Shown: positions 4,506 through 49,852 of the stretch, in pieces
Layout: every line of letters starts with the position of its first letter
How positions within the stretch are numbered: the stretch's first letter is position 1
Source of the DNA: a virus
Direction: 5' to 3' (one strand)
IMG/VR virus record: IMGVR_UViG_3300042090_000890
Location: 33,915-97,914 of that record
DNA: 64,000 bases
Made by a program: the position numbers and the translations under genes
Notes under the pieces: model-generated
What the model was told of the DNA's origin: nothing
Seen by the model: only the letters and a program-made list of their open reading frames with translations
Databases searched by the model: none

Positions 4506-4947
4506 GATTCTAGTATGGCAAGTGAAAAATAAAATCTTCCAAAAGTTGTATAAATTTTTGGTATGGGCTTTCGGCATGGAAAGCGAGATCATCGATGTGC
4601 TCAATCGAGCCAGAGGCGAGATCACTGGCCTCCGTGCCGACAAGGAAAAGCTGGAGAAACAGGTTGTACTGCACGACCGTGGCACTTCCCTCGACGTACG
4701 TTCGTCACTCGCGGCTATCGATCTCGATTCGCTCGGAGAGATCATTTGGATAACGGTCGGCGACGAGCGCATGCTTAGGGCTGACGTCTTCAATCAGATA
4801 CGAGACTATTACAACACTCACGGAAAAGGTCACTCGATCTTGTTGGTCACTGGCCCGAACGTGACGTTCAAGTCTCTCACGGACGGAGATTTAGAAGAAG
4901 CTGGGCTTCGCCGACTTTCGAGGCTTGAGCGCATAGGCTTACGATGA
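4486..4947 (+). CDS. Hypothetical protein
   Basis: GGAGG SD before ATG 4486; stop overlaps TerL start. Confidence 0.55.
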   Translation: MLSPKNRILVWQVKNKIFQKLYKFLVWAFGMESEIIDVLNRARGEITGLRADKEKLEKQVVLHDRGTSLDVRSSLAAIDLDSLGEIIWITVGDERMLRADVFNQIRDYYNTHGKGHSILLVTGPNVTFKSLTDGDLEEAGLRRLSRLERIGLR

Positions 4948-11647: not shown

Positions 11648-13396
11648 TTGGTGGTCACTTTGGGTCTGAAGATTGACGGTATCGCGACATCTGAACACAT
11701 TGATTCGTCCGGTGAATTGCTCATCGTCGAGAATCATGACATCTCCGATCTTGTGTCGGGCAAAGGCGTCATGAATTGGGAGCACTCCAATAAGTCCGAT
11801 GACACGATTGGAGCAATCATCTACGCCAAGAAAATTCTCAAGAAGACCGACTGCGAGAACGACCGCCAGCGAAAATACTGGAATACCGTCAACAAGCCGT
11901 TCGTTTACATCATAGGCGAGCTGTACGATGACGAGGAACATTCAGGTGCGCTTGCCGTCGCCGCCATGATCCGGTACTACGCCAAGAAATCTGAGAATCT
12001 CCTGACAGGCTTCTCCATCGAAGGCGCCACGCTCGAACGGGATGATTATATCCTGAAAGAGTCTGTCGGTCGCCGGGTAGCCGTCACCCTCCGCCCGTGC
12101 AATAAGACTGCAATCGCTGGGTTGCTGGAAGATCCAAAAACGAAAGATATCGCTAAGTCGATCGAGGCAATGATGGCCCGCGTCGATGGCAGCCTCGTCG
12201 AAATCGACTCGGTCATCCTCGACGATATGTTCATGCCGAAGGACCCGATTCTCGACCTACATAAGGCCGTCGAAAGTCTCGCGAAGTCGATCGAAGCGGG
12301 CATGTACAATGTCACTCCGTCGCAGTTGATCGGCCAAGCCGCACTTACCCGCGAGCACATCAGCGGATTCCAGCGGAACCGTGTTAAAGCTGCCGTCCGC
12401 GATTGGGACCGCAAACGTCCTCTCAAGGAAGTTCTGAAGAGCGCTCTACCGGAAGTGTCTGACGATTACATCGGACATTTCGAGAAGTTGGCCGAAGAAT
12501 TGGCACTCAAGAAAAACATGCCATCCACGAAATTAACTCGCGTTGGGGCTAGACATTCGCCAAATCAACATCAAAATGAAGACCAACAGAAGTTGATCGA
12601 AGGCTTGTACTTCGACCCGAAGAGAAAGTTCGGCGGTAAAGATTTTGATCCTGGCCACACCGGCTATCAAACCGCGATCACGAAGCATAAAAATGACGCA
12701 GGCGCGAACGTGTTGGTCAAACAGCCCACGGGCAAATGGGCAGAGAACGCCACTCATTACTACGAGAACGCTCGCGATGTTTTTGGAATGGGCAATCACG
12801 TACCGGTTACGAATTATTTCAAGCCGCCCAAAGGATCTCAGAAATGGGATATGACTACCGATACTACGGATCGTCAGCCTGAAGGCCTGCATCATCAAGC
12901 GATGGAACTTGTCGATAAAGCCAAATCGCCAATGACCATGAACGACAAAGACCTGGCTAAACCGTTGCAAAGAGCATATGATAACGGAGACTTGAACAAA
13001 CTCATGATGATGGATCAGATTCTAGGCGGAGCGTCGGATAGACACCACGGAAACTATCTGATTCATCCTAAAGGCCACGTTATGAACATCGACAACGATC
13101 AGGCTTTTTCTTACAATATACCGGCTCCGACACCGGCGTACATGTATCAGCACATCGATCAGCCGATACACCCGGAAGCGTCAAAATGGATAAAAGGAAT
13201 TGATCCAAAAGCGTTGATCGGGAAGATGGCGGACCAAGGTCGTTCACCGGAAGAAATAAAATCCGCCGCTATGATTCTTAAACTGCATCAGAAATACGCC
13301 GACAAGCCTATGACAGGACGCCAACTGTGGGACACTATAGGCAATCATGCTACGGCAGTTCGTCGTGAAGAGCAGCGCAAGAAGAAGGTAGCATGA
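11648..13396 (+). CDS. Prohead protease fused to a C-terminal PI3/4-kinase/HipA-like domain
   Basis: IDGIATSEHIDSSGE, NWEH, GFSIEG, VAVTLRPCN (prohead protease); C-terminal VLVK, DRHHGNYL, IDNDQAF (kinase); true start may be TTG 11660. Confidence 0.8.
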   Translation: MVVTLGLKIDGIATSEHIDSSGELLIVENHDISDLVSGKGVMNWEHSNKSDDTIGAIIYAKKILKKTDCENDRQRKYWNTVNKPFVYIIGELYDDEEHSGALAVAAMIRYYAKKSENLLTGFSIEGATLERDDYILKESVGRRVAVTLRPCNKTAIAGLLEDPKTKDIAKSIEAMMARVDGSLVEIDSVILDDMFMPKDPILDLHKAVESLAKSIEAGMYNVTPSQLIGQAALTREHISGFQRNRVKAAVRDWDRKRPLKEVLKSALPEVSDDYIGHFEKLAEELALKKNMPSTKLTRVGARHSPNQHQNEDQQKLIEGLYFDPKRKFGGKDFDPGHTGYQTAITKHKNDAGANVLVKQPTGKWAENATHYYENARDVFGMGNHVPVTNYFKPPKGSQKWDMTTDTTDRQPEGLHHQAMELVDKAKSPMTMNDKDLAKPLQRAYDNGDLNKLMMMDQILGGASDRHHGNYLIHPKGHVMNIDNDQAFSYNIPAPTPAYMYQHIDQPIHPEASKWIKGIDPKALIGKMADQGRSPEEIKSAAMILKLHQKYADKPMTGRQLWDTIGNHATAVRREEQRKKKVA

Positions 13397-21670: not shown

Positions 21671-22516
21671 ATGAATAAGCCAAAATGGACTGACCAAGAC
21701 GTACAGAGCATCCTTGACAGCGTTGAAGAAACGATTGCCAAGGCCGAAGCTCTTGCGAAGGCAGATCCGGCTGATCCAGATCCGAAGGACGATAAAAATG
21801 CGCCTCCGGATCAGTCAGCTGCACCGGCTTCTTCTGACGCGCCGCCTTCCGGCGACGCTCCTCCTGCAGATGGTTCGGCAGACGGCTCTCAGCCGCCTCC
21901 GGACGGTTCGCAACCTCCGATGGACGGCTCTCAGCCGCCCGCAGAAGGCCAAGAACAACAACTTGCAGCCGAAGGACAACCTGGTGAAGACCAGCCCCTG
22001 TCTGACGAAGAGCTGGCTCAGATTTACGGATCGATGCCGCCCGACGAACTTGAGAGACATTACTCGATCATCCGACAGCAGCTCCAAGCTGCCTACAGCC
22101 AAGATCAAGGTGCCGCTCCTGCTGCTCCTGAGTCTGCTGCTCCTCCCGCTCCTGCTGCACCGGCACCGCAAGGTCCGCCGCAAGAGATGGGCAAGTCGGA
22201 GAAAGATGTGATCGCTGCTCTCGAAAAGCGCGTGGCACAAGCCGAAGAAGCCAATCAAATGGTTGTGAAGGCTTTCGAAGCCCTCGCAAAACCGGCCCGC
22301 AAGTCGATTACCGAGATTCAGGTCATGAACAAGACCGAAATCGATAACTCGCAGCAAACCGGCCCGATGACGGTCGAGCAAGTCAAAGAGAAAGCCCGCA
22401 AGCTCTCTCCGGCCAAGCTCGAAAAGTCGGAACGTGACCTGATAAACCGCCTCTTCATCTCAGGTGAAGGTGCAGAAGAAGTTGAACGAATTATCCACTC
22501 TAAGGGAGGGAAATAA
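21671..22516 (+). CDS. Capsid scaffolding protein (putative)
   Basis: Pro/Ala/Asp/Gln low complexity plus coiled coil; LAKA, MGKS and LEKS sites; directly upstream of MCP. Confidence 0.65.
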   Translation: MNKPKWTDQDVQSILDSVEETIAKAEALAKADPADPDPKDDKNAPPDQSAAPASSDAPPSGDAPPADGSADGSQPPPDGSQPPMDGSQPPAEGQEQQLAAEGQPGEDQPLSDEELAQIYGSMPPDELERHYSIIRQQLQAAYSQDQGAAPAAPESAAPPAPAAPAPQGPPQEMGKSEKDVIAALEKRVAQAEEANQMVVKAFEALAKPARKSITEIQVMNKTEIDNSQQTGPMTVEQVKEKARKLSPAKLEKSERDLINRLFISGEGAEEVERIIHSKGGK

Positions 22517-22518
22517 TA

Positions 22519-23910
22519 ATGGACGATCTAGTCAAGACTCTTGAGAGTCTCGTGAAAACCTTGGAGGCCGGTAACTACAACGTAGCGCCGTCGCAGTTGG
22601 TCCAAGGATCAGCACTCCAGATCGAAAACCTTGAGCCTGTGATGCACAATGTGACGTTTGACGACAGTCACATCAAGCTTCAGAAGCTCTTCTCGGTGAA
22701 GAAAGCCAAGTCATTGCTTGTGCAGTTCAACCGCCAGCTGTCTTATGGACGGTTCGGTGGAACAGCGCAGCGTGAAGGCGCGGTTGGCGACTTGAACGTC
22801 GGCGACTATATCCGGGCTACGGTTCCGATGTGTTTCTACTCTTGTGTTGAGCGCGTAACGATCGCGGCCAACATGGTTGAGACCATCGACGGCAAGAAAG
22901 CCGAAGACCGTGAGGCAGATAACGCCGCAATCAAATTGTCGGCGGACATCGAGTTCGACTCTTTCAAAGGAAAAGCCGATTTCTCGAACAACGGCGTTTT
23001 CGACGGCAACCCGGCCCTCATGCCGGAACTTCCGAGCATGCTCGGTCTCGACTCGCAAGTTCGCATGTCAGACATCCTCGTTTCGACGCAGGATCTGATG
23101 TTCGCATCTTACGGATCGAACAAGTCGGTCGTTCTCTCGCAGAACGGTTCGCTTGATCAGCCGATCATCGAATCCGCAGCTCTCCGCAGCCGCATGAACA
23201 TGGGTAAAGCAGAAACCATGTTCGTTGACCCGGTCATTCTGTCCGGTTACAACACCTCGGTCGCTCTCGGTACGGGCGTGAACTCGATCCAACGGATCGT
23301 GCTCGCAGGCTCCGCACAAGACGCTACCGGTGCTGACCTTCGCAGACAGTGGGTCTCGAACGGAACAGTCGGTCTCGAAGACTCGCGCTTCTTGTCCGGC
23401 AAAACCTCGCCTCTTCGCGCAATGATCGGCAGCCCGCTCCCGCCCGCAACTGCGGTCGGCACGCCCTCCGGCTCCGGCGCTCTCATCCCCGCTGGCACGT
23501 ATGTGTACGGTGTGACGGCTGAGAACGAACGCGGTGAAGGCGTCGAGATGTTCTCGGCATCTGTTGTGGTCGCAGCTGGCCAGCAAGTGGCTCTCGTGAT
23601 CGCAGGCGTTGCAGGCGCTTCGCTCTACAACGTGTATCGCGGCACTTCGGCCTCGAACGCTTACTACATCGGTCGCATCGCTGCGAACGGTTCCGCAAGC
23701 GTGACCTTCACCGATCTCGGCAACAAGTCGCCGGGCTTCGTGACCGGTTACCTCGTCCAGAAGGACACTTGGGGATTCCACGAGTTGGCTCCGTACTCAC
23801 GTATGAAGCTCGCAATCGCGGACTTGAGCGTTCCGGAAGCGCACTTCCGCTTCCTGACTCTCGCAGGCTACCAGCCTCGCAAGAACGTCATCGTCGACAA
23901 CTTGTTCTAA
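22519..23910 (+). CDS. Major capsid protein (SPO1/Twort-like, with inserted Ig/FN3-like domain)
   Basis: N-terminal KTLEAGNYNVAPSQLVQGSALQIENLE, RQLSYG, GTYVYGVTAENERGE...YNVYRG, C-terminal PRKNVIVDN. Confidence 0.88.
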   Translation: MDDLVKTLESLVKTLEAGNYNVAPSQLVQGSALQIENLEPVMHNVTFDDSHIKLQKLFSVKKAKSLLVQFNRQLSYGRFGGTAQREGAVGDLNVGDYIRATVPMCFYSCVERVTIAANMVETIDGKKAEDREADNAAIKLSADIEFDSFKGKADFSNNGVFDGNPALMPELPSMLGLDSQVRMSDILVSTQDLMFASYGSNKSVVLSQNGSLDQPIIESAALRSRMNMGKAETMFVDPVILSGYNTSVALGTGVNSIQRIVLAGSAQDATGADLRRQWVSNGTVGLEDSRFLSGKTSPLRAMIGSPLPPATAVGTPSGSGALIPAGTYVYGVTAENERGEGVEMFSASVVVAAGQQVALVIAGVAGASLYNVYRGTSASNAYYIGRIAANGSASVTFTDLGNKSPGFVTGYLVQKDTWGFHELAPYSRMKLAIADLSVPEAHFRFLTLAGYQPRKNVIVDNLF

Positions 23911-27615: not shown

Positions 27616-28866
27616 ATGAACATGACTTCTGCGAGCACTGGCTCATTCGACAATTTGCCGACCGCCGGACAAACTCTGGTGAAAACCTTCCCGCGACTCT
27701 TCAAGAAGGCGTCCTCCGGCGCGATTCAATACTGGGACATATTCGCTCAGCAGAGTCCCGCAGGATATGGTCTTGTAGTAACCATATACGGCCAGCTTGG
27801 TACTCCGAACCCGCAGCGCACTTCCGACACCGTTTCGGAAGGTAAGAACCTCGGTAAGAAGAATGCCACGACCGCCTATGAGCAGGCCATCAAGCAAGCG
27901 CAAGGTAAATGGGAAAAACAGAAAAAGAACAAGGGTTACGTCGACACCGAAGAGGCCGCTCGCGCCGAGTTGGTCGATAGCACCGTCGGCGGCGGAACGT
28001 GGCCGATGCTGGCCGAGAAGTACCGCGATTATGCCAAGAAAGTGGCGTGGCCATGCTTCGTTCAGCCGAAGCTGAACGGGCACCGTTGCATTGCTACCGT
28101 AGTCGGCGGCAAAGCAACTCTTTGGAGCCGCAAGCGCAAGCCCATCACCTCGATGCCTCACATCATCGCTGAGCTGGAAGCGAACTTCACCGACGCTATC
28201 TTGGACGGCGAGCTATACAATCAGGAAATCGGCCAGACGTCGCCGGATTATACCGGTCCGAAAACGCCCGATGCAATGACGCTCCAAGAACTAAGCGGAT
28301 TGGTCCGCTCGAAGGTTCCGAAAGGTCGATATGAGAAAGTTCAATACCACGTGTACGATTTGGTCAACGACGGTAAGTTCGTGGACCGGTACGACCAGCT
28401 CACTTCTCTGATGTCACAAGTCAATTTCCAGATCGTCTGCCTCGTGCAAACGGGCTGGGTCAACGACGACGCCGCAGTCACGAAACTGTTCGACGAAGTC
28501 CGCTCGGCTGGATACGAGGGCCTCATGCTCCGCAATGCGGATGGCCTATACATCCAGCACCCGACCAAACGATCGAAGGATCTGCTTAAGGTCAAGAAGT
28601 TCGTAGGCGACCAAGAGTTTGAGATCATCGGCATCGAAGAGGGCAACGGTAAACTGCAAGGCCACGTCGGTTCGTTCGTCTGCAAAGCAGCAAACGGAAA
28701 CGTGTTCAAAGCAAAACTGGAAGGCGAATACTCTTTCCTTAAAGAGTGTTTCGAAGACCATTCGCTGTGGGAAGGAAAGATGTTGACGGTCGAGTATTCG
28801 GAGCTGACACCTGAAGACCAGGTTCCGTTCCAAGGAGTCGGCAAAGACATTCGGGATAAAGAATGA
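27616..28866 (+). CDS. ATP-dependent DNA ligase with N-terminal WGR-like extension
   Basis: Motif I QPKLNGHR, III LDGELY, IIIa YHVYD, IV YEGLMLR, V LLKVK, OB-fold C-terminus. Confidence 0.9.
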   Translation: MNMTSASTGSFDNLPTAGQTLVKTFPRLFKKASSGAIQYWDIFAQQSPAGYGLVVTIYGQLGTPNPQRTSDTVSEGKNLGKKNATTAYEQAIKQAQGKWEKQKKNKGYVDTEEAARAELVDSTVGGGTWPMLAEKYRDYAKKVAWPCFVQPKLNGHRCIATVVGGKATLWSRKRKPITSMPHIIAELEANFTDAILDGELYNQEIGQTSPDYTGPKTPDAMTLQELSGLVRSKVPKGRYEKVQYHVYDLVNDGKFVDRYDQLTSLMSQVNFQIVCLVQTGWVNDDAAVTKLFDEVRSAGYEGLMLRNADGLYIQHPTKRSKDLLKVKKFVGDQEFEIIGIEEGNGKLQGHVGSFVCKAANGNVFKAKLEGEYSFLKECFEDHSLWEGKMLTVEYSELTPEDQVPFQGVGKDIRDKE

Positions 28867-34284: not shown

Positions 34285-36078
34285 ATGAAGATCAAGAAAT
34301 GGGCAGAACAACGGAGCAGGGCGGTAAAAAAGTCGGAGATTATAAAAGTCTCTGGCGCCGAATTCCTGCGTGATCTTCAGGCCGAGTTAGGTGCTGAGCT
34401 GTCCAAGAGTTTTCAAAAGCAAGTTGACGGAATCACTCCAGTAATCTTCAAACGTTGCATCAAGCCAGACTCCAACGCCATCGAGTTCGTCGAGAAATAC
34501 AAGGCTTCCGCCGACTACCGCACTGCTGCGCTCGATTCTATGCCGTCTGGGTTCCACCGATCGCTACTGATCAAATCGGTAGACGAGTTCTCAGTCAAGC
34601 TCGGTCACATATTGTCTGACTTGACACTCTCCGATCTCCAGAAGAAAGTGAAAACAAAGGACTGGAACCGCGTGGCTGGCAAACACGATCCGGACGCCGG
34701 TCTGATGGTTGACCATAAGCCTCACATCGAAAAATTTCCAGTCCATTCCGATTACGGCAAGATGCTTACTTCAGACATGACTCATCCGAACCATAAGTTG
34801 GAAGAGAACGGTATCTCTGCCAAGATGGTTCATGAGGTTCAGGCCCACGAGTATCCTCACGACCAAGACCTGTACATGGCGAAGCCGTACCACAAGAAGA
34901 TTGAGTCGGCGACCAAGAGTTGGGTCAAGAATCCGATTCTCGGCTGGGCATCCATGGCGACCAAAGCCATGTTCAACGCAGGCGGCATCGGACATCTGGC
35001 CGAGGACGTGACCACTCATGAGCACGAGGGTATTCCCTTGACGGTTCACAAGTTTGCGCATGATCACGTAATGATCGCCAAGAAACACAGTCCTTTCGTT
35101 GATCCAGCGGACGTACACAAGATTGCCGTCATGGATTACCTCTCGAATAATCTCGATCGTCACCATGGCAACCTCATGGTCGGTAACTACACGGACCCTC
35201 GCGGTACGAATCCTCTGTTGGCTATCGACCACGAGCGGAACTTCCAGTACAGTAAAAGGCTCTGGGACAACAAGTGGAAGCGCGAACAGCACAAGGGTAT
35301 GTCAACTGAGCCGATCATCCGCAAAGAAACGCCGATGTCATATCTGAAAGGCTCATCGCTGAAGGACGCTCTCGCTCCGAACAAGAATGCCTGGCACTCT
35401 CACGAGGATCTGGTCGACTGGTGGAAGCAACACGGCCAAACTATACGCGAGGAAATGGATAATCAAGTTCAGTCGATCAAGGACGAATCTGTACGGAAAC
35501 ACGTACGTGACAACTTCCACGATCGCTGGCACAAGATGAATGACTGGGCATCCAACGTATCGGCGGACCCGAACGACGACGCCATGTGGCAGGAATCTTC
35601 CTTGCACGACCGCTTCGATCAAGGTCGTATCCTTACACAGGAACAGCCAAGAATCAGTGCTAAGCAACTGAAATCCCTACCAAAAAATAAAAAAGATGCA
35701 CTGTTCGCCATTTCTGATATAGTCAACAAGAAGAGTCGTCTCACAATGAACCAGAGGCAATTATTGCATAGCGCGATCAAAAATATCATGACAGAAATGA
35801 CGCCGGAAGAGGCGGGCGAAGTGTTCCGTTCGGTCGCTGAGAATCCGCACATGTCGACAAAAGTCATCCGGGAGAATCCGGATGTGGACGTGAAGAATCA
35901 GATGCTGCGCCATTTTTCGGAAATGAACTACGGGCCACGCGGCAAGGATACGTACAAGTACGACCACATGCGCTCGATGGCCGACGCGATCGATAAGTTG
36001 CCGGACGATAAGAAGGAAATTCTCTCGCAGTGGGCGAATCACTACCGCCGATTGCTCGATGAAAGGCAGGCCGCATGA
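34285..36078 (+). CDS. Modular protein with PI3/4-kinase/HipA-like domain
   Basis: YMAK, MDYLSNNLDRHHGNLM, AIDHERNF. Confidence 0.7.
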   Translation: MKIKKWAEQRSRAVKKSEIIKVSGAEFLRDLQAELGAELSKSFQKQVDGITPVIFKRCIKPDSNAIEFVEKYKASADYRTAALDSMPSGFHRSLLIKSVDEFSVKLGHILSDLTLSDLQKKVKTKDWNRVAGKHDPDAGLMVDHKPHIEKFPVHSDYGKMLTSDMTHPNHKLEENGISAKMVHEVQAHEYPHDQDLYMAKPYHKKIESATKSWVKNPILGWASMATKAMFNAGGIGHLAEDVTTHEHEGIPLTVHKFAHDHVMIAKKHSPFVDPADVHKIAVMDYLSNNLDRHHGNLMVGNYTDPRGTNPLLAIDHERNFQYSKRLWDNKWKREQHKGMSTEPIIRKETPMSYLKGSSLKDALAPNKNAWHSHEDLVDWWKQHGQTIREEMDNQVQSIKDESVRKHVRDNFHDRWHKMNDWASNVSADPNDDAMWQESSLHDRFDQGRILTQEQPRISAKQLKSLPKNKKDALFAISDIVNKKSRLTMNQRQLLHSAIKNIMTEMTPEEAGEVFRSVAENPHMSTKVIRENPDVDVKNQMLRHFSEMNYGPRGKDTYKYDHMRSMADAIDKLPDDKKEILSQWANHYRRLLDERQAA

Positions 36079-38505: not shown

Positions 38506-38514
38506 CCTAATCTT
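38506..38514 (+). promoter_or_regulatory. Putative late promoter motif CCTAATCTT
   Basis: Exact intergenic copy. Confidence 0.7.
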
Positions 38515-38947: not shown

Positions 38948-41002
38948 ATGGACCACAGTCAGAAGTTGCTTAAATCCATTCTTGGTGATCGAGGGTATGA
39001 GACTCTCGAAAAGGCCATATATAAGCAACGGACGCAGGCTGTCGTCGACCCACTCGAATACTACCTTCCTCTGATCGTCGTTCCGCGAACAATTTTGTCT
39101 TGGCTCGTGCAGAACATCAATCCGATGAGACAAGGCGAGATCAAAGACATAGCATTTCCTGGCCGCGAAGATATCATGATCCATATTGAAAAGCAGGCAC
39201 CGGACCAATACCGTATGGAGTTCGTCCAAGGCGGGCGGGTCATCCATCAGTTCGAGAAGCAATCTCTTCCAGCTGCCTCCGGCCATCTCATGTCGGTCGG
39301 CGAGATGTACGACGAGTTCGCTGCGCCGAAGCCAGCAACGCATGACGACAAGGTGAATGAGGAAATCAAAGCCAATCCGGAATTGAACAAGCCAAAGGCG
39401 GAGTCTCCGGAATTCGATTCGTTGCGCCACGTCATTTCTATGGCGAATGTGCAGCCGAAGGAAGATCCCGAACAGATAAAATGGACCATGTCTCACGCTA
39501 ACGTGCGGGAGATGACCGCCGTGATCGGCAAGTTAGTCGATGCTCTTACCGCCAAACAGCTCCATAGAGAAAGGTTGGAAGCTGAGCTAGACGAAACCGC
39601 CAAAGAGGAAAAGAACATGAGCGACACTACCCGAAAGCGAGCTGACACGCGGACTATCCGCCCGTCTGACTCGTACGCACAGTTGGACCGCAACAAAAGC
39701 AAGGATACGACCGATCTTGAAGAGCCGCCTACCAAGCCGGAAAAACGCCCGGAGGGCGAAGCTCGGACCGACGAGACGATTAAGCCTCGTTCGCAGACTC
39801 CGTTCAAACCTGGCAAACAAGCTGCCTCACAGCAAGAAGAGAAGCCTTTCAAAAAGCAAGATCCTCCGATGTCCGACAAGAAGTCTGACTCTGGCTCAAC
39901 TCAGGACCCGGCCACAAAGCCGAAGATTGATCCGGTTGGCGCCGCCCGCGTCGACGAGCCGCATAACCAGACTCCATTCAAGCCGGGCATCGCCGCGCCA
40001 GTGCAACAGCCTGAGAAGCCATTCAAGAAAGGTGTTCTAAGCCCCACAGAACAGCGGACGGACACGGTCGGAACTTCGTCGCCTGGTAAGAATCAGGCAC
40101 ACGGCTATTTCCGTAAAAAGATGGAGATGTTGACAAAGCCGTACGTCTCGGAAGCTCAGCGCGGCAAGTTTCACGCTATGGAAGATCGCGGTGAGATTTC
40201 TCACGCGACAGTAGCTCATTGGGATAAGGCGTCCAAAGGCAAGCATTTACCGCAACACGTCAAAAAAGAAGAGGTGAAGCCTCTCGGCGGCACAGGTACC
40301 GGCGCGCCGTCTACTCCAACGTCACGCCCTAACGGCGGCTTTGGAAGTATCACAGCAAAAGAAGAAAAACAGGTCACGAGCCATTCCTCTCCGTCCGGCG
40401 GCGGAGGCATGACTAACGCCAAAGCCCCGAAAGGCAATGGCATGGCATTCCCAGTCTTGAAAGAAGAAATGGGCAAAGGCGAGATGCCGAAAGGCGCTGG
40501 CCAACCTATGGCTCCGAAGCCTCCGCAAATGCCGAAGCCTCCCGTCCCTCCGGGCAACAATCCGGCGGCGCAGGCCGCCAAGCAGTCTCAGCAATCCGGT
40601 ATGGGCAAAATGCCTGTTCCCGGCAAGCCGAAGATGCCGTCTATGGCACCGAAAACTCCGTCGATGAACAAGTCGGATTACTTCCGAAGCAAGCTAGGAA
40701 AGTCAGAGCCGATTAGAACGAGCGCTACCGAAGAGCAGTTGTACAAGTCAGCGTGCTCGCAGTGCGGCGTGGCCGAGTTCGTAAAGGACAAGGACGGCAA
40801 CCCGAAGTTTCAGCCTTGCGCCTGCTTCCTCGTCATGAAAAAAGACTCGGAAGGCAATCCTTCCAAGTTTGTGAAAGTCCTTCGCAAGTCCAACGGTTCG
40901 TACAGCATGGAATTTGCCAAAGGCGCTGATCCAGAAGTGGTCAAGCTCTTCTTGCTTACGCTCAAGAGCAAGTTGTTGATCAAGAAGAAATTCGGCATTT
41001 AA
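38948..41002 (+). CDS. Low-complexity modular head protein with C-terminal Zn-ribbon-like motif
   Basis: Duplicated QTPFKPG..EKPFKK units, Pro/Lys-rich linkers, CSQCG...CAC, many hydrophobic-x-K sites. Confidence 0.6.
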   Translation: MDHSQKLLKSILGDRGYETLEKAIYKQRTQAVVDPLEYYLPLIVVPRTILSWLVQNINPMRQGEIKDIAFPGREDIMIHIEKQAPDQYRMEFVQGGRVIHQFEKQSLPAASGHLMSVGEMYDEFAAPKPATHDDKVNEEIKANPELNKPKAESPEFDSLRHVISMANVQPKEDPEQIKWTMSHANVREMTAVIGKLVDALTAKQLHRERLEAELDETAKEEKNMSDTTRKRADTRTIRPSDSYAQLDRNKSKDTTDLEEPPTKPEKRPEGEARTDETIKPRSQTPFKPGKQAASQQEEKPFKKQDPPMSDKKSDSGSTQDPATKPKIDPVGAARVDEPHNQTPFKPGIAAPVQQPEKPFKKGVLSPTEQRTDTVGTSSPGKNQAHGYFRKKMEMLTKPYVSEAQRGKFHAMEDRGEISHATVAHWDKASKGKHLPQHVKKEEVKPLGGTGTGAPSTPTSRPNGGFGSITAKEEKQVTSHSSPSGGGGMTNAKAPKGNGMAFPVLKEEMGKGEMPKGAGQPMAPKPPQMPKPPVPPGNNPAAQAAKQSQQSGMGKMPVPGKPKMPSMAPKTPSMNKSDYFRSKLGKSEPIRTSATEEQLYKSACSQCGVAEFVKDKDGNPKFQPCACFLVMKKDSEGNPSKFVKVLRKSNGSYSMEFAKGADPEVVKLFLLTLKSKLLIKKKFGI

Positions 41003-43242: not shown

Positions 43243-44259
43243 ATGGGCATACAGGCAACAGACATTCTCATAAAGACCATGATCGAAGGCGCCTTGGCTG
43301 ATCTTCGCAAGAATAATTGGATTCTGGACGACATCTACGCCGACCTGGCCCTCGATCCTTTGGCCAAAATGGATTACGGCTGGAAAGAAGTCATGCGTGC
43401 GAAGGAATGGTTTACTGGCAACAACATCGACGTGTACTTGACCAACCGCGTCGACACGCCTCGATTCCCGTGCATATCCATCGTGCGACTGTCGTCCCGC
43501 GAAATGACGGAACGCGACGAAATGGGCGATGGCTTCGATGAAACCGAGATCGTGCCGCACAATGTTACCAATCTGCCCCAACAAATGTATGGCCCATTCA
43601 CTCCGATAGCGTACAACCAATCGACGGGAGTCGTTACTCTGCCGGAAAATCTGACTACGAGCCGCATGTTTGTCGGCCAATTCTTGGTATCGAAGCGTAC
43701 GGGCAAAGCATATGTTATCAATCAGGTTAACGAACCATCCGCCTTCGTTATCGCACCCGGCACGGTAGATGACTTCACGGAAGCGTACATCGCACCTCCG
43801 ACTTCGCTATGGAACCTGAGCAAAGAAAGAACTTGGCTCGAAGAGACTTTCGCCATCGGTATGCATACAGAATCCGACATGAACGAAGCGATCTGGATGC
43901 GCCAGCTCGTTCAATACATCATGCTCCGGTACAAAGAGGCGTACATAGAACGACGTGGTGTGGCTCTATCCACCTTCAACGTCGGATCTATCGACATCAA
44001 TCCTCACTTCAACGGTACGGAGAAAGTATTCTCGTGCATGATGACGTTCACGGGTCAGGTGGAAGCCAACTTCATCAAATATGCTGCCCCGAAGTTGCAG
44101 GGCTTCAAAGTTACGACTTACGTCCTTGACGGACCTAAGACACCTGCAGCATACTTGAAATACGCAGAAGCGCAGGGCTGGGAAATGCAAGGTGACGAAC
44201 CTGCGAAAAGGCCGCCTAAGAAAAAGAAGCCAGATCCTCTTTCAAGAGATGAAGAATGA
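43243..44259 (+). CDS. Tail terminator/completion protein (putative)
   Basis: FPCISI motif and C-terminal beta pattern; position before sheath. Confidence 0.5.
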   Translation: MGIQATDILIKTMIEGALADLRKNNWILDDIYADLALDPLAKMDYGWKEVMRAKEWFTGNNIDVYLTNRVDTPRFPCISIVRLSSREMTERDEMGDGFDETEIVPHNVTNLPQQMYGPFTPIAYNQSTGVVTLPENLTTSRMFVGQFLVSKRTGKAYVINQVNEPSAFVIAPGTVDDFTEAYIAPPTSLWNLSKERTWLEETFAIGMHTESDMNEAIWMRQLVQYIMLRYKEAYIERRGVALSTFNVGSIDINPHFNGTEKVFSCMMTFTGQVEANFIKYAAPKLQGFKVTTYVLDGPKTPAAYLKYAEAQGWEMQGDEPAKRPPKKKKPDPLSRDEE

Positions 44260-46502
44260 AAAAAGTAGTGTGCGTCGCCATACGACATCCGGATGAACCG
44301 AACCTGTTCCTCCACGGGCTTCGTCGCGACAATCACAAGTGGGCTCTACCCGGCGGTCACGCCAAGCCTGGCGAGCTGGACGACGAGGCAGCCAACCGCG
44401 AGCTGGAAGAAGAGACCGGTCTCAAAGGTGTCAAGATCGACAAGGTGCATGATAAAGTGTACGGAAACAACCACGTCGTTCTGCACATGGCAGAGCATCC
44501 GGAAGGCGCGGAGCTTGATCCGCATTCCGATCCAGATAACGAGTTTGTGACATTCAAGTTCCTTGACCCGACCAAGCACGCCAACATGCACGTTCCGGGC
44601 AAGAACAATATCCTGATCAATTGGATGGACGGACACCTCAAGAAAGGCGAGTCGTACGAGGAAGAAACAGAAAAGATTCGTGAAAATCAGAAGAAGCCGG
44701 AAGCCCGCGTCCCGCACAAGTTCAAGGCTGCTAAGTGGACGTTCAAAAACGGTCACCCTAGATGTTTCACATGCGGGCAGGAAGAGCCTGTGTCGGGCAC
44801 ATGCGAAGCTCGCCTAGATAAATCTCAGCCGCGTTCTAAGTTAACGGTCGAGCCATTTGCAGTCGACAAATCCGTCTTCGACCCTCGTAAGCACGACTTC
44901 ATAGTTCGCATGCACAAAGGCGGAAAGCAGATCGGATTCGTAGCGATCACTCACAAGCCGAACGGGATCATGCCGTTCAACTTCGAAGTGAACCGACTGC
45001 ATCAGCGTCAAGGCCACGGCACGGCACTTATAAATCATGCGCAGAATGTATCGCGAAAGAAGCTAATTCGCTCACCGGATATGACTCAGGCCGGATCTGC
45101 CTTCGCGGATAAGTATTTGGGACCTGCCAAACCTTTGAAAAAGATCGAGATCATCCACAACGAGGATACGTCGGCCTTGATGAACCGCGTGGAAACCAAG
45201 CATTTCATGCCAGCCGAGAATCTCGATAAGCTACTGAGCGGTATAAAAAGCTCGCTTCCAGACGGAGACCCGGACACTTCCGTCCGATTCAACGTCAATA
45301 AGACTATCTATCTCGACAATCGCGATCTCGATGCGCTCCGCGACAACATGGAGAGAAAGAAGCCACGGTTCAAGGTTCGAATCAGGCAGTATTCGCCGAA
45401 CGGAGAGGAGTGGGAAGATGTTGCATACCTTGAGTTGAAGCTCAAGACAAAAGGCGATCAAACAAAGAAGATCCGCGTCCGCATCCGGGCATCTGATATC
45501 GACGCCATTTCGGAAGGCAAAGTAGTTCGCATCGATGAGGATATCGAAAAGCTCAATCTTGATATCCCAAAGGATATACTTTGGAAGCGGGTAACCTCCA
45601 TCAACACGATCATCGAAAAGTACGGCTTCCGGAAGCAGATTGTAGTGACTTATCAGCGCCGGGCGTACTCTTCCGAAAAGATCCGGGTTACTGTGGATGA
45701 TTCCATCCGGTATTCGGATGCGAAAGCGATAGAGCCAGAATCGGTTCAGATGATAAAGGACTCCGCCTACTGGAAGGCGTTCAAGAAGCGTCACCTCAAG
45801 ATTCGAAAAAGCGATTACGTCATCGTCGAAGTGAAAGAAGAGACCGGCGTACCTAAGTGGCTGCGCAAAGTGCTGGATGAATGCGAAGCCGAGGAAGTGC
45901 GCTTTTCGAAATACTGCGGCGCGATGGTTTCGTTTATCAAAAGTTCCGAGAAGGACGGGCCGATCTCAAGTAACCGTAATATCGACGCCAACTCTGTTCT
46001 ATCTGAGATCGAAGGATACGAAGCGTTCAACAAAGCCGAGCAAGCTCCGCCTGCCGCACCGTACCTTAATTTGGTATACCCCGTCTCCGTCGGCGGTAAG
46101 GCTACACGTCCGGACGGCAAGCCGTTTGAACTGAATGTGAAGGCCTTTGGCAACTCGCCGACACTGAACCATCAGGCCATCCAAGGCCATCTCGAACAGT
46201 ATGCTCTGCATATTCCGGTCGATCAATCCAAGATGACGTACGTCCCGCACAAGCTGAAAGGATTGGACGGCAAAGAAGAGCATGTTCTGGTCGTCTTAGG
46301 CATGCCGAAGAAGCTGGACCACATGAGAGTCGCTCTGTCGGCCATCGGACCGAAAAATGACTCCAAGCCGTATATACCGATCGACGAAGATGACTGGAAC
46401 CGTTTGTCGAAGCTGGGCAACGCTCTGACCGCGAAGGACGCAGGCATATCGTTTCACCCGCCGGAACTCCGATACGGCCCGACAGTCCTAAAGACCTATT
46501 AG
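44256..46502 (+). CDS. Polyvalent protein: Nudix + Zn-ribbon + GNAT + VTC + 2H-like
   Basis: Nudix box GGHAKPGELDDEAANRELEEETG; CFTC..C; QRQGHGTAL; RVETKH, TIYLD, KVRIRQY, YLELKLK, YQRRAY, RVTVD, VEVK, FSKY (VTC). Confidence 0.75.
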   Translation: MKKVVCVAIRHPDEPNLFLHGLRRDNHKWALPGGHAKPGELDDEAANRELEEETGLKGVKIDKVHDKVYGNNHVVLHMAEHPEGAELDPHSDPDNEFVTFKFLDPTKHANMHVPGKNNILINWMDGHLKKGESYEEETEKIRENQKKPEARVPHKFKAAKWTFKNGHPRCFTCGQEEPVSGTCEARLDKSQPRSKLTVEPFAVDKSVFDPRKHDFIVRMHKGGKQIGFVAITHKPNGIMPFNFEVNRLHQRQGHGTALINHAQNVSRKKLIRSPDMTQAGSAFADKYLGPAKPLKKIEIIHNEDTSALMNRVETKHFMPAENLDKLLSGIKSSLPDGDPDTSVRFNVNKTIYLDNRDLDALRDNMERKKPRFKVRIRQYSPNGEEWEDVAYLELKLKTKGDQTKKIRVRIRASDIDAISEGKVVRIDEDIEKLNLDIPKDILWKRVTSINTIIEKYGFRKQIVVTYQRRAYSSEKIRVTVDDSIRYSDAKAIEPESVQMIKDSAYWKAFKKRHLKIRKSDYVIVEVKEETGVPKWLRKVLDECEAEEVRFSKYCGAMVSFIKSSEKDGPISSNRNIDANSVLSEIEGYEAFNKAEQAPPAAPYLNLVYPVSVGGKATRPDGKPFELNVKAFGNSPTLNHQAIQGHLEQYALHIPVDQSKMTYVPHKLKGLDGKEEHVLVVLGMPKKLDHMRVALSAIGPKNDSKPYIPIDEDDWNRLSKLGNALTAKDAGISFHPPELRYGPTVLKTY

Positions 46503-46511
46503 CCTAATCTT
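46503..46511 (+). promoter_or_regulatory. Putative late promoter motif CCTAATCTT
   Basis: Exact copy; ATG 6 nt downstream with no SD. Confidence 0.7.
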
Positions 46512-46517
46512 TTCGGC

Positions 46518-48275
46518 ATGACCAACGACAATTCCGACTCGCAATTGAAAGGAATTACTTCAGGCGGCGCGAACGGCCTTTCTCAGCACCAATCCGAAGA
46601 TACTCTAGGCGGATCAACCATTTCCGGTGCTGGCTCTCGGAACCCGAACGACCAAATCGATCGACATCGTTTATTCCCCGGTGGAATGCTTTCGTCTCCT
46701 TGGCAAGCCTTCGTCAGAAATGGCTTCCGGCGACCAGTAGCGAAAGCAGAATACAGCACAGATCAGGCTCCTAGCAAGGCGCCCGGAGGCGCGCCGAAGA
46801 TGCAAGGTTTGGGCACCGTAAAGATCAAGGAAACGCCGAAGCCGCAAGGTTATGGCAAGGTCACCGTGAAAGAGCCGCCGAAGCCGCAAGGTTTCGGTCG
46901 CGTGATCCAAAAAGCTCTGCCGAAAGGGTTCAAAGTCGGCATTTCGCCGAAAGACGCCAAAGCGCCGGAAAATCCGGAAATTCATCACGAAGAAACGCAC
47001 GTGGCCGGTGTTGAGATTCCACACACGCTGAGAGAACACCTCAAGGCCGGAAATGTCATTCCGTACGATCACCAACTCCGAGATGAAGCTGCCGAATTTG
47101 TGACCAACGTATGGCGTAAGAATCCACACGACGGCAAGCGCATGTCATCGAGATTACTTGGAGTTACTGAAGACGACGCTCCCGCGAAGCCTGGCAAGGC
47201 GACTGTCAAAGACGAGATGTCAATCAAAAAAGACGGCGAGGCTGGCACTGCCAAGCCGTTGGCACCGCGTTTTCCTTCGAAAGAGCAGGGCGACGCTATC
47301 CAACGTGAGCTATCCGGCGGCCTTCCAAATAAAGAAGGTTGGGCCAACGTTCGACAGGAACTCGGTGCGCTTGTCGGCCTTAACAAAGATGAGAAGCCGC
47401 CTGCGCCGCCGAAGCCAAAACTGGCACCGCCGCCTGACAGCCCGCATGCTCAGCGTCCTAACCAGCGCCAGCGTGTGAAAGACGTCAAGGCAAATCTGAT
47501 GGAACAGATCGCTGCTGATCCGTCCAAATCGAAAGTCTCGCTCAGCACGACCAATTCGAAGCTCGCGAAAGACGGTATCGCATCGTTCAATCTTGTACCG
47601 ATCGAGACCTGCCCCGGCGCCGGTTCATGCGCGAAGTATTGCTATGCAGACACTGGATCATTCCTTCGCTTTTGGAAGACGACAATGCCGCCGCGAGTCG
47701 CAAACTGGCTTGCCTCGCAGAAGCCAGATTTCGTCGAGAAGATGAATGCCATGTTCGGCGACGTAAAAAAGAAAGGCAAGATCAAAGCAATCCGTGTTCA
47801 CGACTCAGGCGACTTCTACTCTCCTGACTACATAAAGAAATGGACTGAAATTGCTCGATCGAATCCGGAGTTGATGTTCTACGCGTATACGAAGAGCCAT
47901 CACCCAAATCTGCGCCAACATCTCAATGAACTTGAGAAGCTGCCAAACTTCAACGTCGTACAATCTATGGGTTCTAAATACGACCATCTTATCGATCCAT
48001 CGAAGCCGCACGCAGTTGTATTTCCTGATGAAGCCTCAATGAAGAAAGCTGGCTACGCCGACGCAATGGAATCAGACTTGGCCGCAGCGAATAAGAACAA
48101 TCGCAAAGTCGGTTTGTATATCCATGGCCAATATGACAAGTCGTACCCCGGTCTCGAAGAACATCTGAAAGGAAATCCTCGTATTATGCAGGAAGTTATG
48201 GAAGCTCTTAAAGGCGGCCCGATCAAGAAAACGGAGTCAAAAGGTCTTCGTAGGTTGATCAAGAGTAAAGCCTAA
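46518..48275 (+). CDS. Modular protein with C-terminal gp88-like (Cys-cluster) domain
   Basis: NSKL, TCPGAGSCAKYCYA, IRVHDSGDFYS, FYAYTK. Confidence 0.7.
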   Translation: MTNDNSDSQLKGITSGGANGLSQHQSEDTLGGSTISGAGSRNPNDQIDRHRLFPGGMLSSPWQAFVRNGFRRPVAKAEYSTDQAPSKAPGGAPKMQGLGTVKIKETPKPQGYGKVTVKEPPKPQGFGRVIQKALPKGFKVGISPKDAKAPENPEIHHEETHVAGVEIPHTLREHLKAGNVIPYDHQLRDEAAEFVTNVWRKNPHDGKRMSSRLLGVTEDDAPAKPGKATVKDEMSIKKDGEAGTAKPLAPRFPSKEQGDAIQRELSGGLPNKEGWANVRQELGALVGLNKDEKPPAPPKPKLAPPPDSPHAQRPNQRQRVKDVKANLMEQIAADPSKSKVSLSTTNSKLAKDGIASFNLVPIETCPGAGSCAKYCYADTGSFLRFWKTTMPPRVANWLASQKPDFVEKMNAMFGDVKKKGKIKAIRVHDSGDFYSPDYIKKWTEIARSNPELMFYAYTKSHHPNLRQHLNELEKLPNFNVVQSMGSKYDHLIDPSKPHAVVFPDEASMKKAGYADAMESDLAAANKNNRKVGLYIHGQYDKSYPGLEEHLKGNPRIMQEVMEALKGGPIKKTESKGLRRLIKSKA

Positions 48276-48279
48276 TCTG
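48271..48279 (+). promoter_or_regulatory. Putative late promoter variant CCTAATCTG
   Basis: 1 mismatch; its TAA is the upstream stop. Confidence 0.55.
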
Positions 48280-48315
48280 TATGTAAGTCTCGGTTATCTC
48301 TAGGAGAGGTGAAGG

Positions 48316-49572
48316 GTGAATCAAAAATCTGCACTTGAACAAGCGAAGGAACTCTTGAAAGCCGCTAAGGACAATCCGCAGCAATTTCAAGAACTTACGA
48401 AGGCAAGACCTTCCAAACCGAAGAAGGTTATTCCGGATGATATGAATCAACGGAAGGCGATGCTCCGAGACGGCAAGATCACGAAGGAAGAATACGCTCA
48501 GCCGGTCGGCGGCCAGATTTCTGGCGAGTCCACCACTGGCGGTTATCCTTCTGAGGAAGCGAAGAAGCAAGAAATCTCCGGCGATAAGCCAGGTGCTGGC
48601 TACCCTTCCGACAAGATGAAAAAAGACACGATGAATCCTGCCGGTGAAGCGCAAGGCGGCCAATGTGGCCCCGACAATTCAAAAGGCGGATATCCTTCGG
48701 AGCAAATGAAAAAAGACGCGATGGGCATGCAGCCGCAAAAGCCCGGAGCCGCTCCAGCTGCCAAACCGGCACCGATGCCGCAGCCCGTCAAGAAAGATGA
48801 CAAGCCGCATCCAGCTGGTAGCCCTCCCGCTCAAGCCCATAATGTGGCCGAAGGCGATGAGTCACTTCATCATGCAATGAAGATTTTGGACACGCCCGAC
48901 AAGCAGAAGTCGATGCTCGCACATCTTCGCACGCTCCATGAGCCGTCGCAACAGCGTTCTCCGGCAAACCGTCAAGCAGGCGGCATGCCTCCGCAGAAAC
49001 CGAATGCTGCTCCGCAAAGACCGCCGATGCAGAAAGCTGATATGCCCGGAACCTCCACCGCTGGTGCAGGCGCCGCAGGTGTGCCTCTGGCGATGACCGA
49101 AGCTCTGAAACATGCCAAGGAATTGCTCAAGGCAGCCAAAGATGACCCGAAGCGTTTTGCTGAACTGCGCAAGATGTCTTCCGTCGCTGGTTTGGCCACT
49201 TCTGAAAAGAAGACTGCCAAGACAAGCGAGATGAGCCTCGCGATGGCTGAAACGCAGCCGAATCCGAATCCGATGTCTGCAGAGCAGATCAGCCCGTCCA
49301 CTGGCGTAAAAACCGGCGGTGCGAAGGACCCCAACTCCGCTACCCAGCCTAAGACAGCAGAGCAGATCAGTCCGTCTACCAGCGTGAAGCCGGGCGGCGC
49401 GAAAGATCCGAATTCTGCCACTCAGCCGATGACCGCAGAGCAGATCAATGCTTCCTCGACCAAGAAAGGCGAGATGAGCACCAAAAAGTGCGGCACGATG
49501 ATGAGCAAGGATGAGATCAAGGAAGACTTGAAACAGGACTGGAAACCGAAACACTGGAAAAAGGACTGCTAA
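48316..49572 (+). CDS. Low-complexity internal head/scaffold-like protein
   Basis: Duplicated AKELLKAAKD, three GYPS units, repeated MKKD/VKKD/MQKA sites. Confidence 0.6.
   Translation: MNQKSALEQAKELLKAAKDNPQQFQELTKARPSKPKKVIPDDMNQRKAMLRDGKITKEEYAQPVGGQISGESTTGGYPSEEAKKQEISGDKPGAGYPSDKMKKDTMNPAGEAQGGQCGPDNSKGGYPSEQMKKDAMGMQPQKPGAAPAAKPAPMPQPVKKDDKPHPAGSPPAQAHNVAEGDESLHHAMKILDTPDKQKSMLAHLRTLHEPSQQRSPANRQAGGMPPQKPNAAPQRPPMQKADMPGTSTAGAGAAGVPLAMTEALKHAKELLKAAKDDPKRFAELRKMSSVAGLATSEKKTAKTSEMSLAMAETQPNPNPMSAEQISPSTGVKTGGAKDPNSATQPKTAEQISPSTSVKPGGAKDPNSATQPMTAEQINASSTKKGEMSTKKCGTMMSKDEIKEDLKQDWKPKHWKKDC
49279..49449 (+). repeat. 78-nt coding tandem repeat (AEQISPST.VK.GGAKDPNSATQP), ~2.2 copies
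   Basis: Units start at 49279, 49357 and 49435. Confidence 0.8.
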
Positions 49573-49573
49573 C

Positions 49574-49852
49574 ATGAACAAGCCGAAAGAAGAGAAGAAA
49601 GAGTTCACGATCGTTGAGCCGAAGTCTGACAAGCCTGCGGTGCAGGTCTCTCGGCAGCGTCCTCAGTCGAATGCACGCCCACAGGCACCATCGGTACCGA
49701 TCACGTTTGACGCCTGGTGGTTACGTACTCAGAACAAATATAAGTTCAAGCCGGAACTGAAAAAGGCCGTTCAAAGGCACTTTGAAGCCAGAGGGTTCAC
49801 GGACTACACAAAGTTCGACGCTGGCTTGAGAGATTTCGGATTTAGAACCTAA
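49574..49852 (+). CDS. Hypothetical protein
   Basis: Small ORF directly before sheath. Confidence 0.6.
   Translation: MNKPKEEKKEFTIVEPKSDKPAVQVSRQRPQSNARPQAPSVPITFDAWWLRTQNKYKFKPELKKAVQRHFEARGFTDYTKFDAGLRDFGFRT

Follow-up and report, generated by a model that had tools for sequence, protein, structure and literature searches.

A candidate lysine-junction polyprotein with Nudix, GNAT, VTC and 2H-fold modules in the late genes of an Mx1-like phage

Why would a phage string five unrelated domains into one late protein, and does that protein stay whole? The question is raised by a gene in a 64,000-nucleotide stretch of viral DNA (the window; positions 33,915 to 97,914 of IMG/VR record IMGVR_UViG_3300042090_000890), which forms the right-hand end of a viral contig of 97.9 kb, itself estimated to be 60% complete. 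A single open frame at 44256-46502 (+, stop included), whose ATG overlaps the stop of the gene upstream, encodes a protein of 748 amino acids in which a Nudix domain, a Cys/His module of about 52 residues, a small GNAT domain, a VTC or triphosphate-tunnel (TTM) domain and a 2H-fold domain follow one another. A preliminary description of the sequence had proposed a polyprotein with a cleavage motif at every domain border. Comparison with relatives indicates that a short lysine motif is a real, directional junction signal. We judge it somewhat probable, from the sequences compared here, that the product is a polyvalent cargo protein made late in infection, that the head maturation protease cuts it after K130, K189, K296 and K593, and that the pieces are ejected with the DNA.

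Module borders and the lysine motif

The modules and junctions are listed below in their order along the gene. Local confidence is given as the predicted local distance difference test (pLDDT) of a full-length AlphaFold model, which was built from a 10-row alignment, has a mean pLDDT of 57.7 and was used for linker position and coarse fold matches.

44256-44636 (+): Nudix hydrolase module, residues 1-127 (Pfam NUDIX; PHROG MutT/NUDIX)
44637-44648 (+): junction 1, L128-K-K-G, in a coil of low pLDDT between helices 119-127 and 133-144
44652-44807 (+): mobile Cys/His module of about 52 residues, residues 133-184 (consensus from 33 copies)
44814-44825 (+): junction 2, L187-D-K-S, with pLDDT below 50 at 187-193
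44838-45125 (+): small GNAT acetyltransferase module, residues 195-290 (sub-threshold Pfam match, homologues, fold matches)
45135-45146 (+): junction 3, L294-K-K-I, with pLDDT below 50 at 291-312
45150-45971 (+): VTC/TTM module, residues 299-572 (Pfam VTC, Foldseek, conserved tunnel residues)
46026-46037 (+): junction 4, F591-N-K-A, within a low-confidence stretch, 550-599
46053-46499 (+): 2H-phosphoesterase-fold module, Acb1/VP3-like, residues 600-748 (AlphaFold2, VIA, Foldseek)

The open frame and the four tetrapeptides (starting at 44637, 44814, 45135 and 46026) lie exactly where the preliminary description placed them, and its five domains and their order are right. Its claim that all four boundaries coincide with the motif holds in that every site lies in a linker within borders set independently by BLAST breakpoints against relatives (132/133, 184-195, 287-302 and 572-600); it fails in that the LKKI of junction 3 departs from the consensus proposed there.

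At least 46 homologues of the protein were found. Two orthologues of 746 and 749 residues from independent metagenomes (P0002 and P0003) have the identical architecture, and a syntenic orthologue at IMG/VR locus L004 is 80% identical. Other relatives are arranged as 2H-VTC-Nudix or as Nudix-GNAT-2H without VTC, some lack the Cys/His module, and some combine VTC with a domain resembling PI3/4-kinase or S-adenosylmethionine (SAM) lyase. Nudix and VTC occur together in several architectures, and the 2H and VTC modules are also found nearly alone in other proteins. In the syntenic phage at locus L005, a 401-residue Nudix-GNAT-2H protein occupies the same slot, with insertions and deletions at the motif sites. 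The variable domain content predicted for homologues is thus what we see, in that modules shuffle, drop out and stand alone. A tblastn search with the whole protein gave no match in 50,697 deposited phage genomes, and scanning 185,579 prokaryote genomes with a pattern turned up no relative.

The junction lysines are conserved across these rearrangements. Junction 1 reads LKKS, LAKK, LAKN, LVKP, LSKA or LQKD in orthologues and junction 3 reads LKKV, IAKT, MKKA or LAKT. K189 of junction 2 is invariant in 10 homologues whose linker is otherwise variable, and K593 of junction 4 is invariant even in homologues without VTC. Indeed, in the 10-sequence alignment K189 and K593 hold their position even if the preceding module differs or is missing. 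Segments below 50 pLDDT in the full-length model include 85-133, 187-193, 291-312 and 550-599. The preliminary description had named folds spanning the motif sites as evidence that would speak against it; in this weak model, no predicted secondary-structure element crosses any of the four.

Within the 748-residue protein alone, the coincidence of motif and junction is suggestive only, with p of about 0.01-0.02. The strict form [LMFIV]xK[SATDG] has 11 matches, compared with 5.8 expected, and falls in three of the four junction windows (p~0.007). To include LKKI, the loose form is needed, which matches all four (p~0.016); its 25 occurrences are not significant as a count (p 0.14).

The relatives give much stronger evidence. 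The tight form hydrophobic-x-K-[SA]-[ED] is found 98 times in a set of 71 non-redundant relatives, where about 21 matches would be expected, and hydrophobic-x-KSE is found 56 times where the expectation is about 5. The reversed motif (23 against 21) and the version with arginine stay at expectation. The contexts of the 98 matches are mostly unrelated sequences, and the matches are often paired, as in FGKSEPLEKG.

A flank test addressed position. Module cores were defined independently, the query protein was left out, flanks were made non-redundant and shuffles preserved composition. The motif hydrophobic-x-K-[SATDG] is present in 62 of 98 upstream module flanks, compared with 21.1 ± 4.2 after shuffling (maximum 35), and in 49 of 86 downstream flanks, compared with 19.6 ± 3.9. 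The reversed motif is found in 21 of 98 upstream flanks (21.2 expected). Where a 2H module stands alone or comes first in its protein, it either begins at the predicted mature end or is preceded by a leader of about 10 residues ending in L-x-K↓[SA]-E-[DN]-P, the arrow marking the proposed cut.

A related observation concerns a second short element, K-P-[YFW]-V-S-[EQ]-[AV]-Q, which stands right after a hydrophobic-x-K site in unrelated proteins, namely the product of 38948-41002 (…MLTKPYVSEAQRGKFHAME…), P0012, P0013 and P0023. It appears to be another small mobile module.

Head proteins and the fate of the chain

Three genes of the window's head region bear on which enzyme might cut at such sites.

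11648-13396 (+): head maturation protease fusion, the proposed cutter (PHROG 1028, 8.8e-7, residues 9-155)
21671-22516 (+): scaffold-like protein, the densest in the tight motif
22519-23910 (+): major capsid protein (PHROG 752, 1.5e-34)

The capsid protein begins MDDLVK↓TLESLVK↓TLEAGNYN, in which the cut is predicted, and the capsid protein of Myxococcus phage Mx1 reads LRK↓AMEAGNFN at the same position. The leader of standalone 2H modules resembles this MDDLVK↓T. The protease fusion carries an internal copy of the capsid N-terminal segment (residues 203-238, corresponding to capsid residues 3-38) preceded by LAK↓S. This copy is kept in the protease fusions of two relatives (L007 and L011) and of Mx1, where it follows LAK↓S or FAK↓A. 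A hydrophobic-x-K before hEAGN[YF]N (h, hydrophobic) is therefore found in both the capsid protein and the protease mimic of the phage studied here, the two relatives and Mx1. Across the window proteome, the tight motif occurs 22 times against 6.4 expected. Its strongest enrichment is in the scaffold-like protein, with four matches to [LMFIV]xK[SA][ED] against 0.1 expected, and it is also enriched in several late proteins encoded between the head and tail genes. The capsid N terminus, the scaffold and the protease itself, which are the classical targets of a head maturation protease, carry the same motif.

These observations are consistent with a model in which the polyprotein would be made late and loaded into the prohead, where the head maturation protease would cut at the four junction lysines and free the separate modules, which would then be ejected together with the phage DNA.

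Several points weigh against this model. The motif is loose: folded domains contain eight of the 11 strict matches in the protein, so a match by itself does not predict a cut. Junction 3 has isoleucine at P1′, outside the consensus first proposed. The linkers are only weakly established as disordered because the full-length model has low confidence. The gene sits among neck and tail genes, away from the head genes, and its product has no recognisable N-terminal leader. The identity of the protease comes from one PHROG match; its N-terminal domain has no Pfam match even at E 10, and a BLAST comparison with an XkdF-type homologue was not significant. Every step after late synthesis, that is, cutting, packaging and ejection, is one that we infer. 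Finally, in phage SPN3US all identified cuts except self-cleavage yield N-terminal propeptides rather than separated domains (PMC10052503). An assignment of the head protease as XkdF-like was considered and dropped, since PF14550 and PF04586 were not found in the contig and neither Pfam nor BLAST supported it, leaving the PHROG assignment to stand by itself.

If the chain were never cut, it would act as an intact multi-enzyme protein in the cytoplasm or in the virion, and the lysine motif would serve as a conserved linker, a hinge or a docking segment carried along with module ends as they recombine. Many polyvalent proteins, among them N4 vRNAP, ArdC and TraC1, are transferred unprocessed (PMC5512222). 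Motif copies within folded domains and the lack of a protease domain in cis (Pfam finds none in the 748 residues) fit this explanation, and the recurrent pairing of Nudix with VTC could mean functional coupling. However, the motif stands in non-homologous contexts and in N-terminal leaders of about 10 residues on standalone modules, where a linker role makes no sense; it is common to the capsid N terminus and the scaffold; it is strongly directional; and modules combine in any order, which argues against obligatory cooperation. We regard an uncut protein as unlikely, if a serious contender.

A second alternative keeps the cutting and changes the enzyme, so that another phage or host endopeptidase would act late in the cytoplasm or after ejection, and the pieces need not be virion cargo. 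The location of the gene outside the head module, the want of an obvious capsid-targeting leader and the weak assignment of the head protease all favour it, and Iyer et al. discuss the possibility that polyvalent proteins are processed after injection (PMC5512222). Against this, capsid, scaffold and the body of the protease share one motif, and no second protease is seen in the contig, which represents about 60% of the genome. We consider this explanation improbable. Chance, whereby lysine-rich linkers merely happen to hold hydrophobic-x-K and the pattern was chosen after the fact, draws on the modest figures for the protein alone and is already disfavoured, to the point of being very improbable, by the observed 62 flanks against a shuffled peak of 35 in other proteins, by flat reversed and arginine controls and by the invariance of junction lysines.

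Predicted properties of the modules

Under the favoured reading of a cut and ejected cargo, what the pieces might do depends on the modules themselves, and three of them look catalytically competent. The Nudix domain matches PF00293 over residues 4-116 (58.4 bits against a cut-off of 21.1; 9.7e-16), and a complete Nudix box can be read from the translation (G34-x5-E40-x7-R48-E49-L50-E51-E52-E53-T54-G55-L56). As to substrate class, every NCBIfam equivalog scores far under its cut-off, and matches among PDB sequences are mixed (DIPP, Ap4A hydrolase, MutT-like).

The GNAT domain falls just below the PF00583 (Acetyltransf_1) cut-off over residues 203-269 (19.9 against 20.7 bits), and homologous modules in P0009 and in L005 relatives score 20.4-24.8 bits, so that homologues exceed the cut-off. 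Foldseek returned GNAT matches at probability 1.00, including 1y9k_D and 8iym_A, with the low-confidence model as query. The acetyl-CoA motif Q250-R-Q-G253-H-G255 fits Q/R-x-x-G-x-G/A; in the homologue alignment, G253 never varies and G255 is conserved at 90% or more.

The VTC domain matches PF09359 over residues 310-560 (113.1 bits against a cut-off of 23; 1.9e-32; profile positions 1-234 of 235). The best fold match of the full-length model is the TTM domain of the yeast polyphosphate polymerase Vtc4 (3g3t; Foldseek E 1.6e-6), with a low TM score because the model is poor. Residues conserved at 90% or more in 20 homologues are R311, E313, K315, K373, R375, R377, E393, K395, K397, K405, R407, R409, R468, R469, R477, E525, K527, S551 and K552, which spell out the alternating tunnel patterns RxExK, KxRxR, ExKxK, KxRxR, RR, ExK and SK. 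The module thus resembles Vtc4 and other TTM proteins (3g3t, 5a68 and 7nsf) in its Pfam family, its best fold match and its alternating basic and acidic tunnel residues. It differs from Vtc4 in having neither an SPX domain nor a membrane partner and in being set inside a phage late protein, and its putative activity would be either polyphosphate synthesis or the hydrolysis of triphosphates. We found no VTC domain in the 50,697 deposited phage genomes, in PHROGs or in the literature searched, coverage of which was incomplete. Once freed, the Nudix, GNAT and TTM modules might act early in infection, most probably in counter-defence, by altering host molecules that depend on nucleotides, polyphosphate or acetyl-CoA.

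The C-terminal domain required a fold search, since a profile of its family gave only a weak match to Acb1 among PDB sequences (E 0.064). The last 150 residues were modelled separately with 15 relatives in the alignment (AlphaFold2 pLDDT 88.6). In a VIA search with this model, 2H phosphoesterases fill the first 20 ranks (Z 10.2-7.2), and no unrelated fold scores above Z 3.4. The phosphodiesterase (PDE) domain of rotavirus VP3 leads at Z 10.2, followed by YjcG, LigT, Usb1 and AKAP18, and phage Acb1 scores Z 7.2. Foldseek agrees, matching the VP3 PDE. Members of the family match Pfam Acb1, 2_5_RNA_ligase2 and LigT, and the family is small, with 50 clusters among 1.84 billion representatives.

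The label '2H-like' in the preliminary description is therefore right as to fold, but both catalytic motifs are gone. Two H-x-T/S motifs define viral 2H PDEs (bioRxiv 10.1101/2025.08.21.671373), and relatives in this family keep both, as PYHxTVK and PHITVD. Where relatives read F-H-M-T-V-K, the protein here has F-E625-L-N627-V-K, and where they read P-H-I-T/S-V-D it has P-Y706-I-P708-I-D. Both histidines and both threonine or serine positions are thus lost, as they are in the closest relatives, P0002 and P0004, so no phosphoesterase activity is expected of the domain. It shares the 2H core fold with T4/FBB1 Acb1, the C-terminal domain of rotavirus VP3 and the poxvirus cyclic GMP-AMP PDE (PMC9117128; bioRxiv 10.1101/2025.08.21.671373), and it differs from these in having E625/N627 and Y706/P708 in place of H-x-T/S and in being a module within a larger protein. 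Loss of both catalytic histidines in an Acb1-like domain suggests a shift from degrading a signal to binding it; within the favoured model, the dead domain would bind a nucleotide signal and leave it uncleaved, or serve as an adaptor.

In a per-module comparison with the 80%-identical L004 orthologue, synonymous divergence is saturated, so only nonsynonymous divergence (dN) can be read. The 2H domain has a dN of 0.22, roughly double the values for Nudix, GNAT and VTC (0.09-0.13) and near the value for the linkers (0.26). Two other histidines, H665 (P-H665-K-L; 46248-46250) and H676 (H676-V-L; 46281-46283), are invariant in 10 close homologues. Elsewhere in the family, a relative of the C-terminal module is fused in the 290-residue protein P0052 with mCpol, the minimal CRISPR polymerase domain (Pfam, 8.6e-7), a pairing that places a phage-side cyclase-like domain beside an Acb1-like phosphodiesterase.

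The segment called a 'Zn-ribbon' in the preliminary description is a conserved module, although not a canonical four-cysteine ribbon. The consensus of 33 copies is Y..ETE.IREN.KKPEA..PH.FKAAKWT.PNGHPRC..CGQEE...G.C. With one CxxC (C169 and C172), one further cysteine (C183) and two conserved histidines (H153 and H166), it likely binds zinc at this candidate site. In the full-length model the module has modest confidence and short strands only, and a structure search with it yielded only generic zinc-finger look-alikes (TM below 0.42). No Pfam, PHROG or NCBIfam model covers it.

The module is also mobile, being 55-73% identical in proteins that otherwise share nothing with the one studied here, where its partners include DNA ligase, topoisomerase IB, methyltransferase, active 2H, intein and XkdF-type protease domains. 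A single-sequence scan of IMG/VR gave one locus, and a degenerate DNA pattern gave at least 41 contigs with the core pattern (L014-L054; 6-155 kb). Neither the contig studied here nor Mx1 holds a second copy, and the idea that the module is a general capsid-targeting tag in this phage was dropped for that reason.

Three further observations concern this module. In L014-L054 it is usually preceded by a conserved hydrophobic-x-K-K-L-[ST]-x-A-[EQ]-Q-x-[DE]-[FY]. Several copies stand directly 5′ of an XkdF-type protease domain, as in P0038, in which the module at 393-447 is followed by Peptidase_S78_2 at 448-565. The 1,023-residue protein P0040 combines it with Hint and intein-splicing domains, which would offer a second, self-catalysed route to the separation of parts within the same protein family.

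A broader reading, which we hold tentatively and consider rather doubtful, extends these ideas to Mx1-like phages as a group. In it, the lysine-specific code hydrophobic-x-K↓[SA]-[ED] would be a universal joint for enzyme cassettes that are spliced into a late polyprotein, loaded into the capsid, cut and injected. The cargo would then comprise a Nudix enzyme, an acetyltransferase, the first phage-borne VTC-type enzyme (acting on triphosphates in a tunnel or on polyphosphate), a dead Acb1-like domain as nucleotide-signal sponge and a free zinc-module peptide.

Genomic setting and known systems

The source phage is an uncultured, contractile-tailed relative of Mx1. The gene lies in a late virion gene block, among neck and tail genes, and the features that place it are as follows.

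at 4944: terminase, head module, upstream of the 748-residue protein gene
at 8542: portal, head module
at 10740: MuF-like gene, head module
38506-38514 (+): copy of CCTAATCTT, 5′ of the gene block that ends with the 748-residue protein gene
46503-46511 (+): copy of CCTAATCTT, directly after its stop codon
49882-52656: tail sheath gene, 37% identical to the sheath of Mx1

Of the flanking genes named in the preliminary description, the sheath is borne out by its identity to that of Mx1, whereas the neighbour labelled 'tail-completion' has no family match. The element CCTAATCTT occurs in seven exact copies in the window against 0.35 expected, all on the + strand and at gene boundaries (6852, 11622, 32770, 38506, 46503, 49848 and 55845), and is a candidate late promoter or boundary element.

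Neighbourhoods were compared for two IMG/VR loci and Mx1. A variable slot lies between a conserved gene of about 335 codons and the sheath (44256-49852 in the window, 9977-14642 in L005 and 14285-15964 in L002). It holds four genes in the window, three different ones in L005 (one of them with DUF3293) and, in Mx1, a single unrelated protein of 559 residues with weak SAM-lyase and DUF3293 matches. Elsewhere, Mx1 encodes a 1,479-residue protein with GNAT, ART-PolyVal and NUDIX domains and the motif at domain borders. A 'kinase' adjoins this polyvalent Nudix protein in Mx1. In the window, a protein with a PI3/PI4-kinase-like domain in the late block and an ATP-dependent DNA ligase in an inserted non-structural block are together encoded at 34285-36078 and 27616-28866.

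The general kind of system is known, both as polyvalent proteins and as protease-processed head cargo in T4, phiKZ and SPN3US. The preliminary description had called this gene the clearest example of the proposed polyprotein design, which is not new in kind. Polyvalent proteins of phages and conjugative elements were described by Iyer, Burroughs, Anand, de Souza and Aravind in 2017 (PMC5512222). Like them, the protein studied here joins unrelated conflict-type domains in one chain, varies in architecture and is encoded with virion genes. With five modules and at least 46 shuffled relatives, it falls under a definition that asks for two or more unrelated conflict-type domains in varying architectures. 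The known repertoire includes NUDIX and GNAT (PMC5512222), and the Mx1 relative carries the Pfam ART-PolyVal domain. The terms 'CYTH', 'zinc ribbon' and 'Zn-ribbon' are absent from the text of that paper, in which 'VTC' was not looked for. A difference from polyvalent proteins is that ours lacks any peptidase domain in cis, be it MuF, MPTase or another, and that its junctions share a lysine motif. The match of this motif to capsid and scaffold sites implies cutting in trans.

The T4 prohead protease gp21 cuts at L/I-x-E, and the motif of the phiKZ/SPN3US type is small-x-E. In T4, IPI-III and Alt are effectors that are loaded into the prohead by a capsid-targeting sequence, trimmed by gp21 and ejected with DNA (PMC9026906; see also PMC10052503 for processed head cargo), as we propose here. 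The likeness extends to a three-residue motif with a hydrophobic P3 and, on standalone modules, a leader of about 10 residues. The P1 residue is lysine here and glutamate in T4, the proposed cuts would part whole domains rather than remove one leader, and the system here is known from sequence alone. In the large myoviruses phiKZ and SPN3US, the proteases gp175 and gp245, respectively, cut many internal head proteins at sites of a short consensus that recurs several times within a substrate (PMC10052503 and PMC5694885); both the motif and the phage lineage differ from those described here. A motif common to capsid and scaffold, the mark of head-protease cargo, is seen here in the LVK↓T of the capsid protein (a predicted site), the four motifs of the scaffold and the LAK↓S of the mimic. 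We found no report of a lysine-specific head-protease motif in the Mx1-like lineage in the searched literature, coverage of which was incomplete.

What is new here is the presence of a VTC domain in a phage, a lysine-type motif at every module border that is shared with capsid and scaffold, modules that behave as cassettes, the dead Acb1-like domain and the uncharacterised zinc module. For the suggested counter-defence role there is a circumstantial lead in Myxococcus xanthus, in which an island combining CBASS (antiphage signalling that relies on cyclic oligonucleotides) with type III-B CRISPR stops phage Mx4 and not Mx1, and the authors of that study suspect extra countermeasures in Mx1 (PMC11506125). 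Because cultured Mx1 has the motif in its GNAT-ART-Nudix protein, the hypothesis is directly testable.

If the junction lysines are true cut sites, the injected arsenal of this lineage would evolve by the exchange of cassettes, and a single protease specificity would serve both to mature the capsid and to release effectors whose number has no fixed limit. Virion cargo would then be predictable from sequence alone, and the motif would offer a natural 'plug-in' site through which foreign proteins could be loaded into phage heads.

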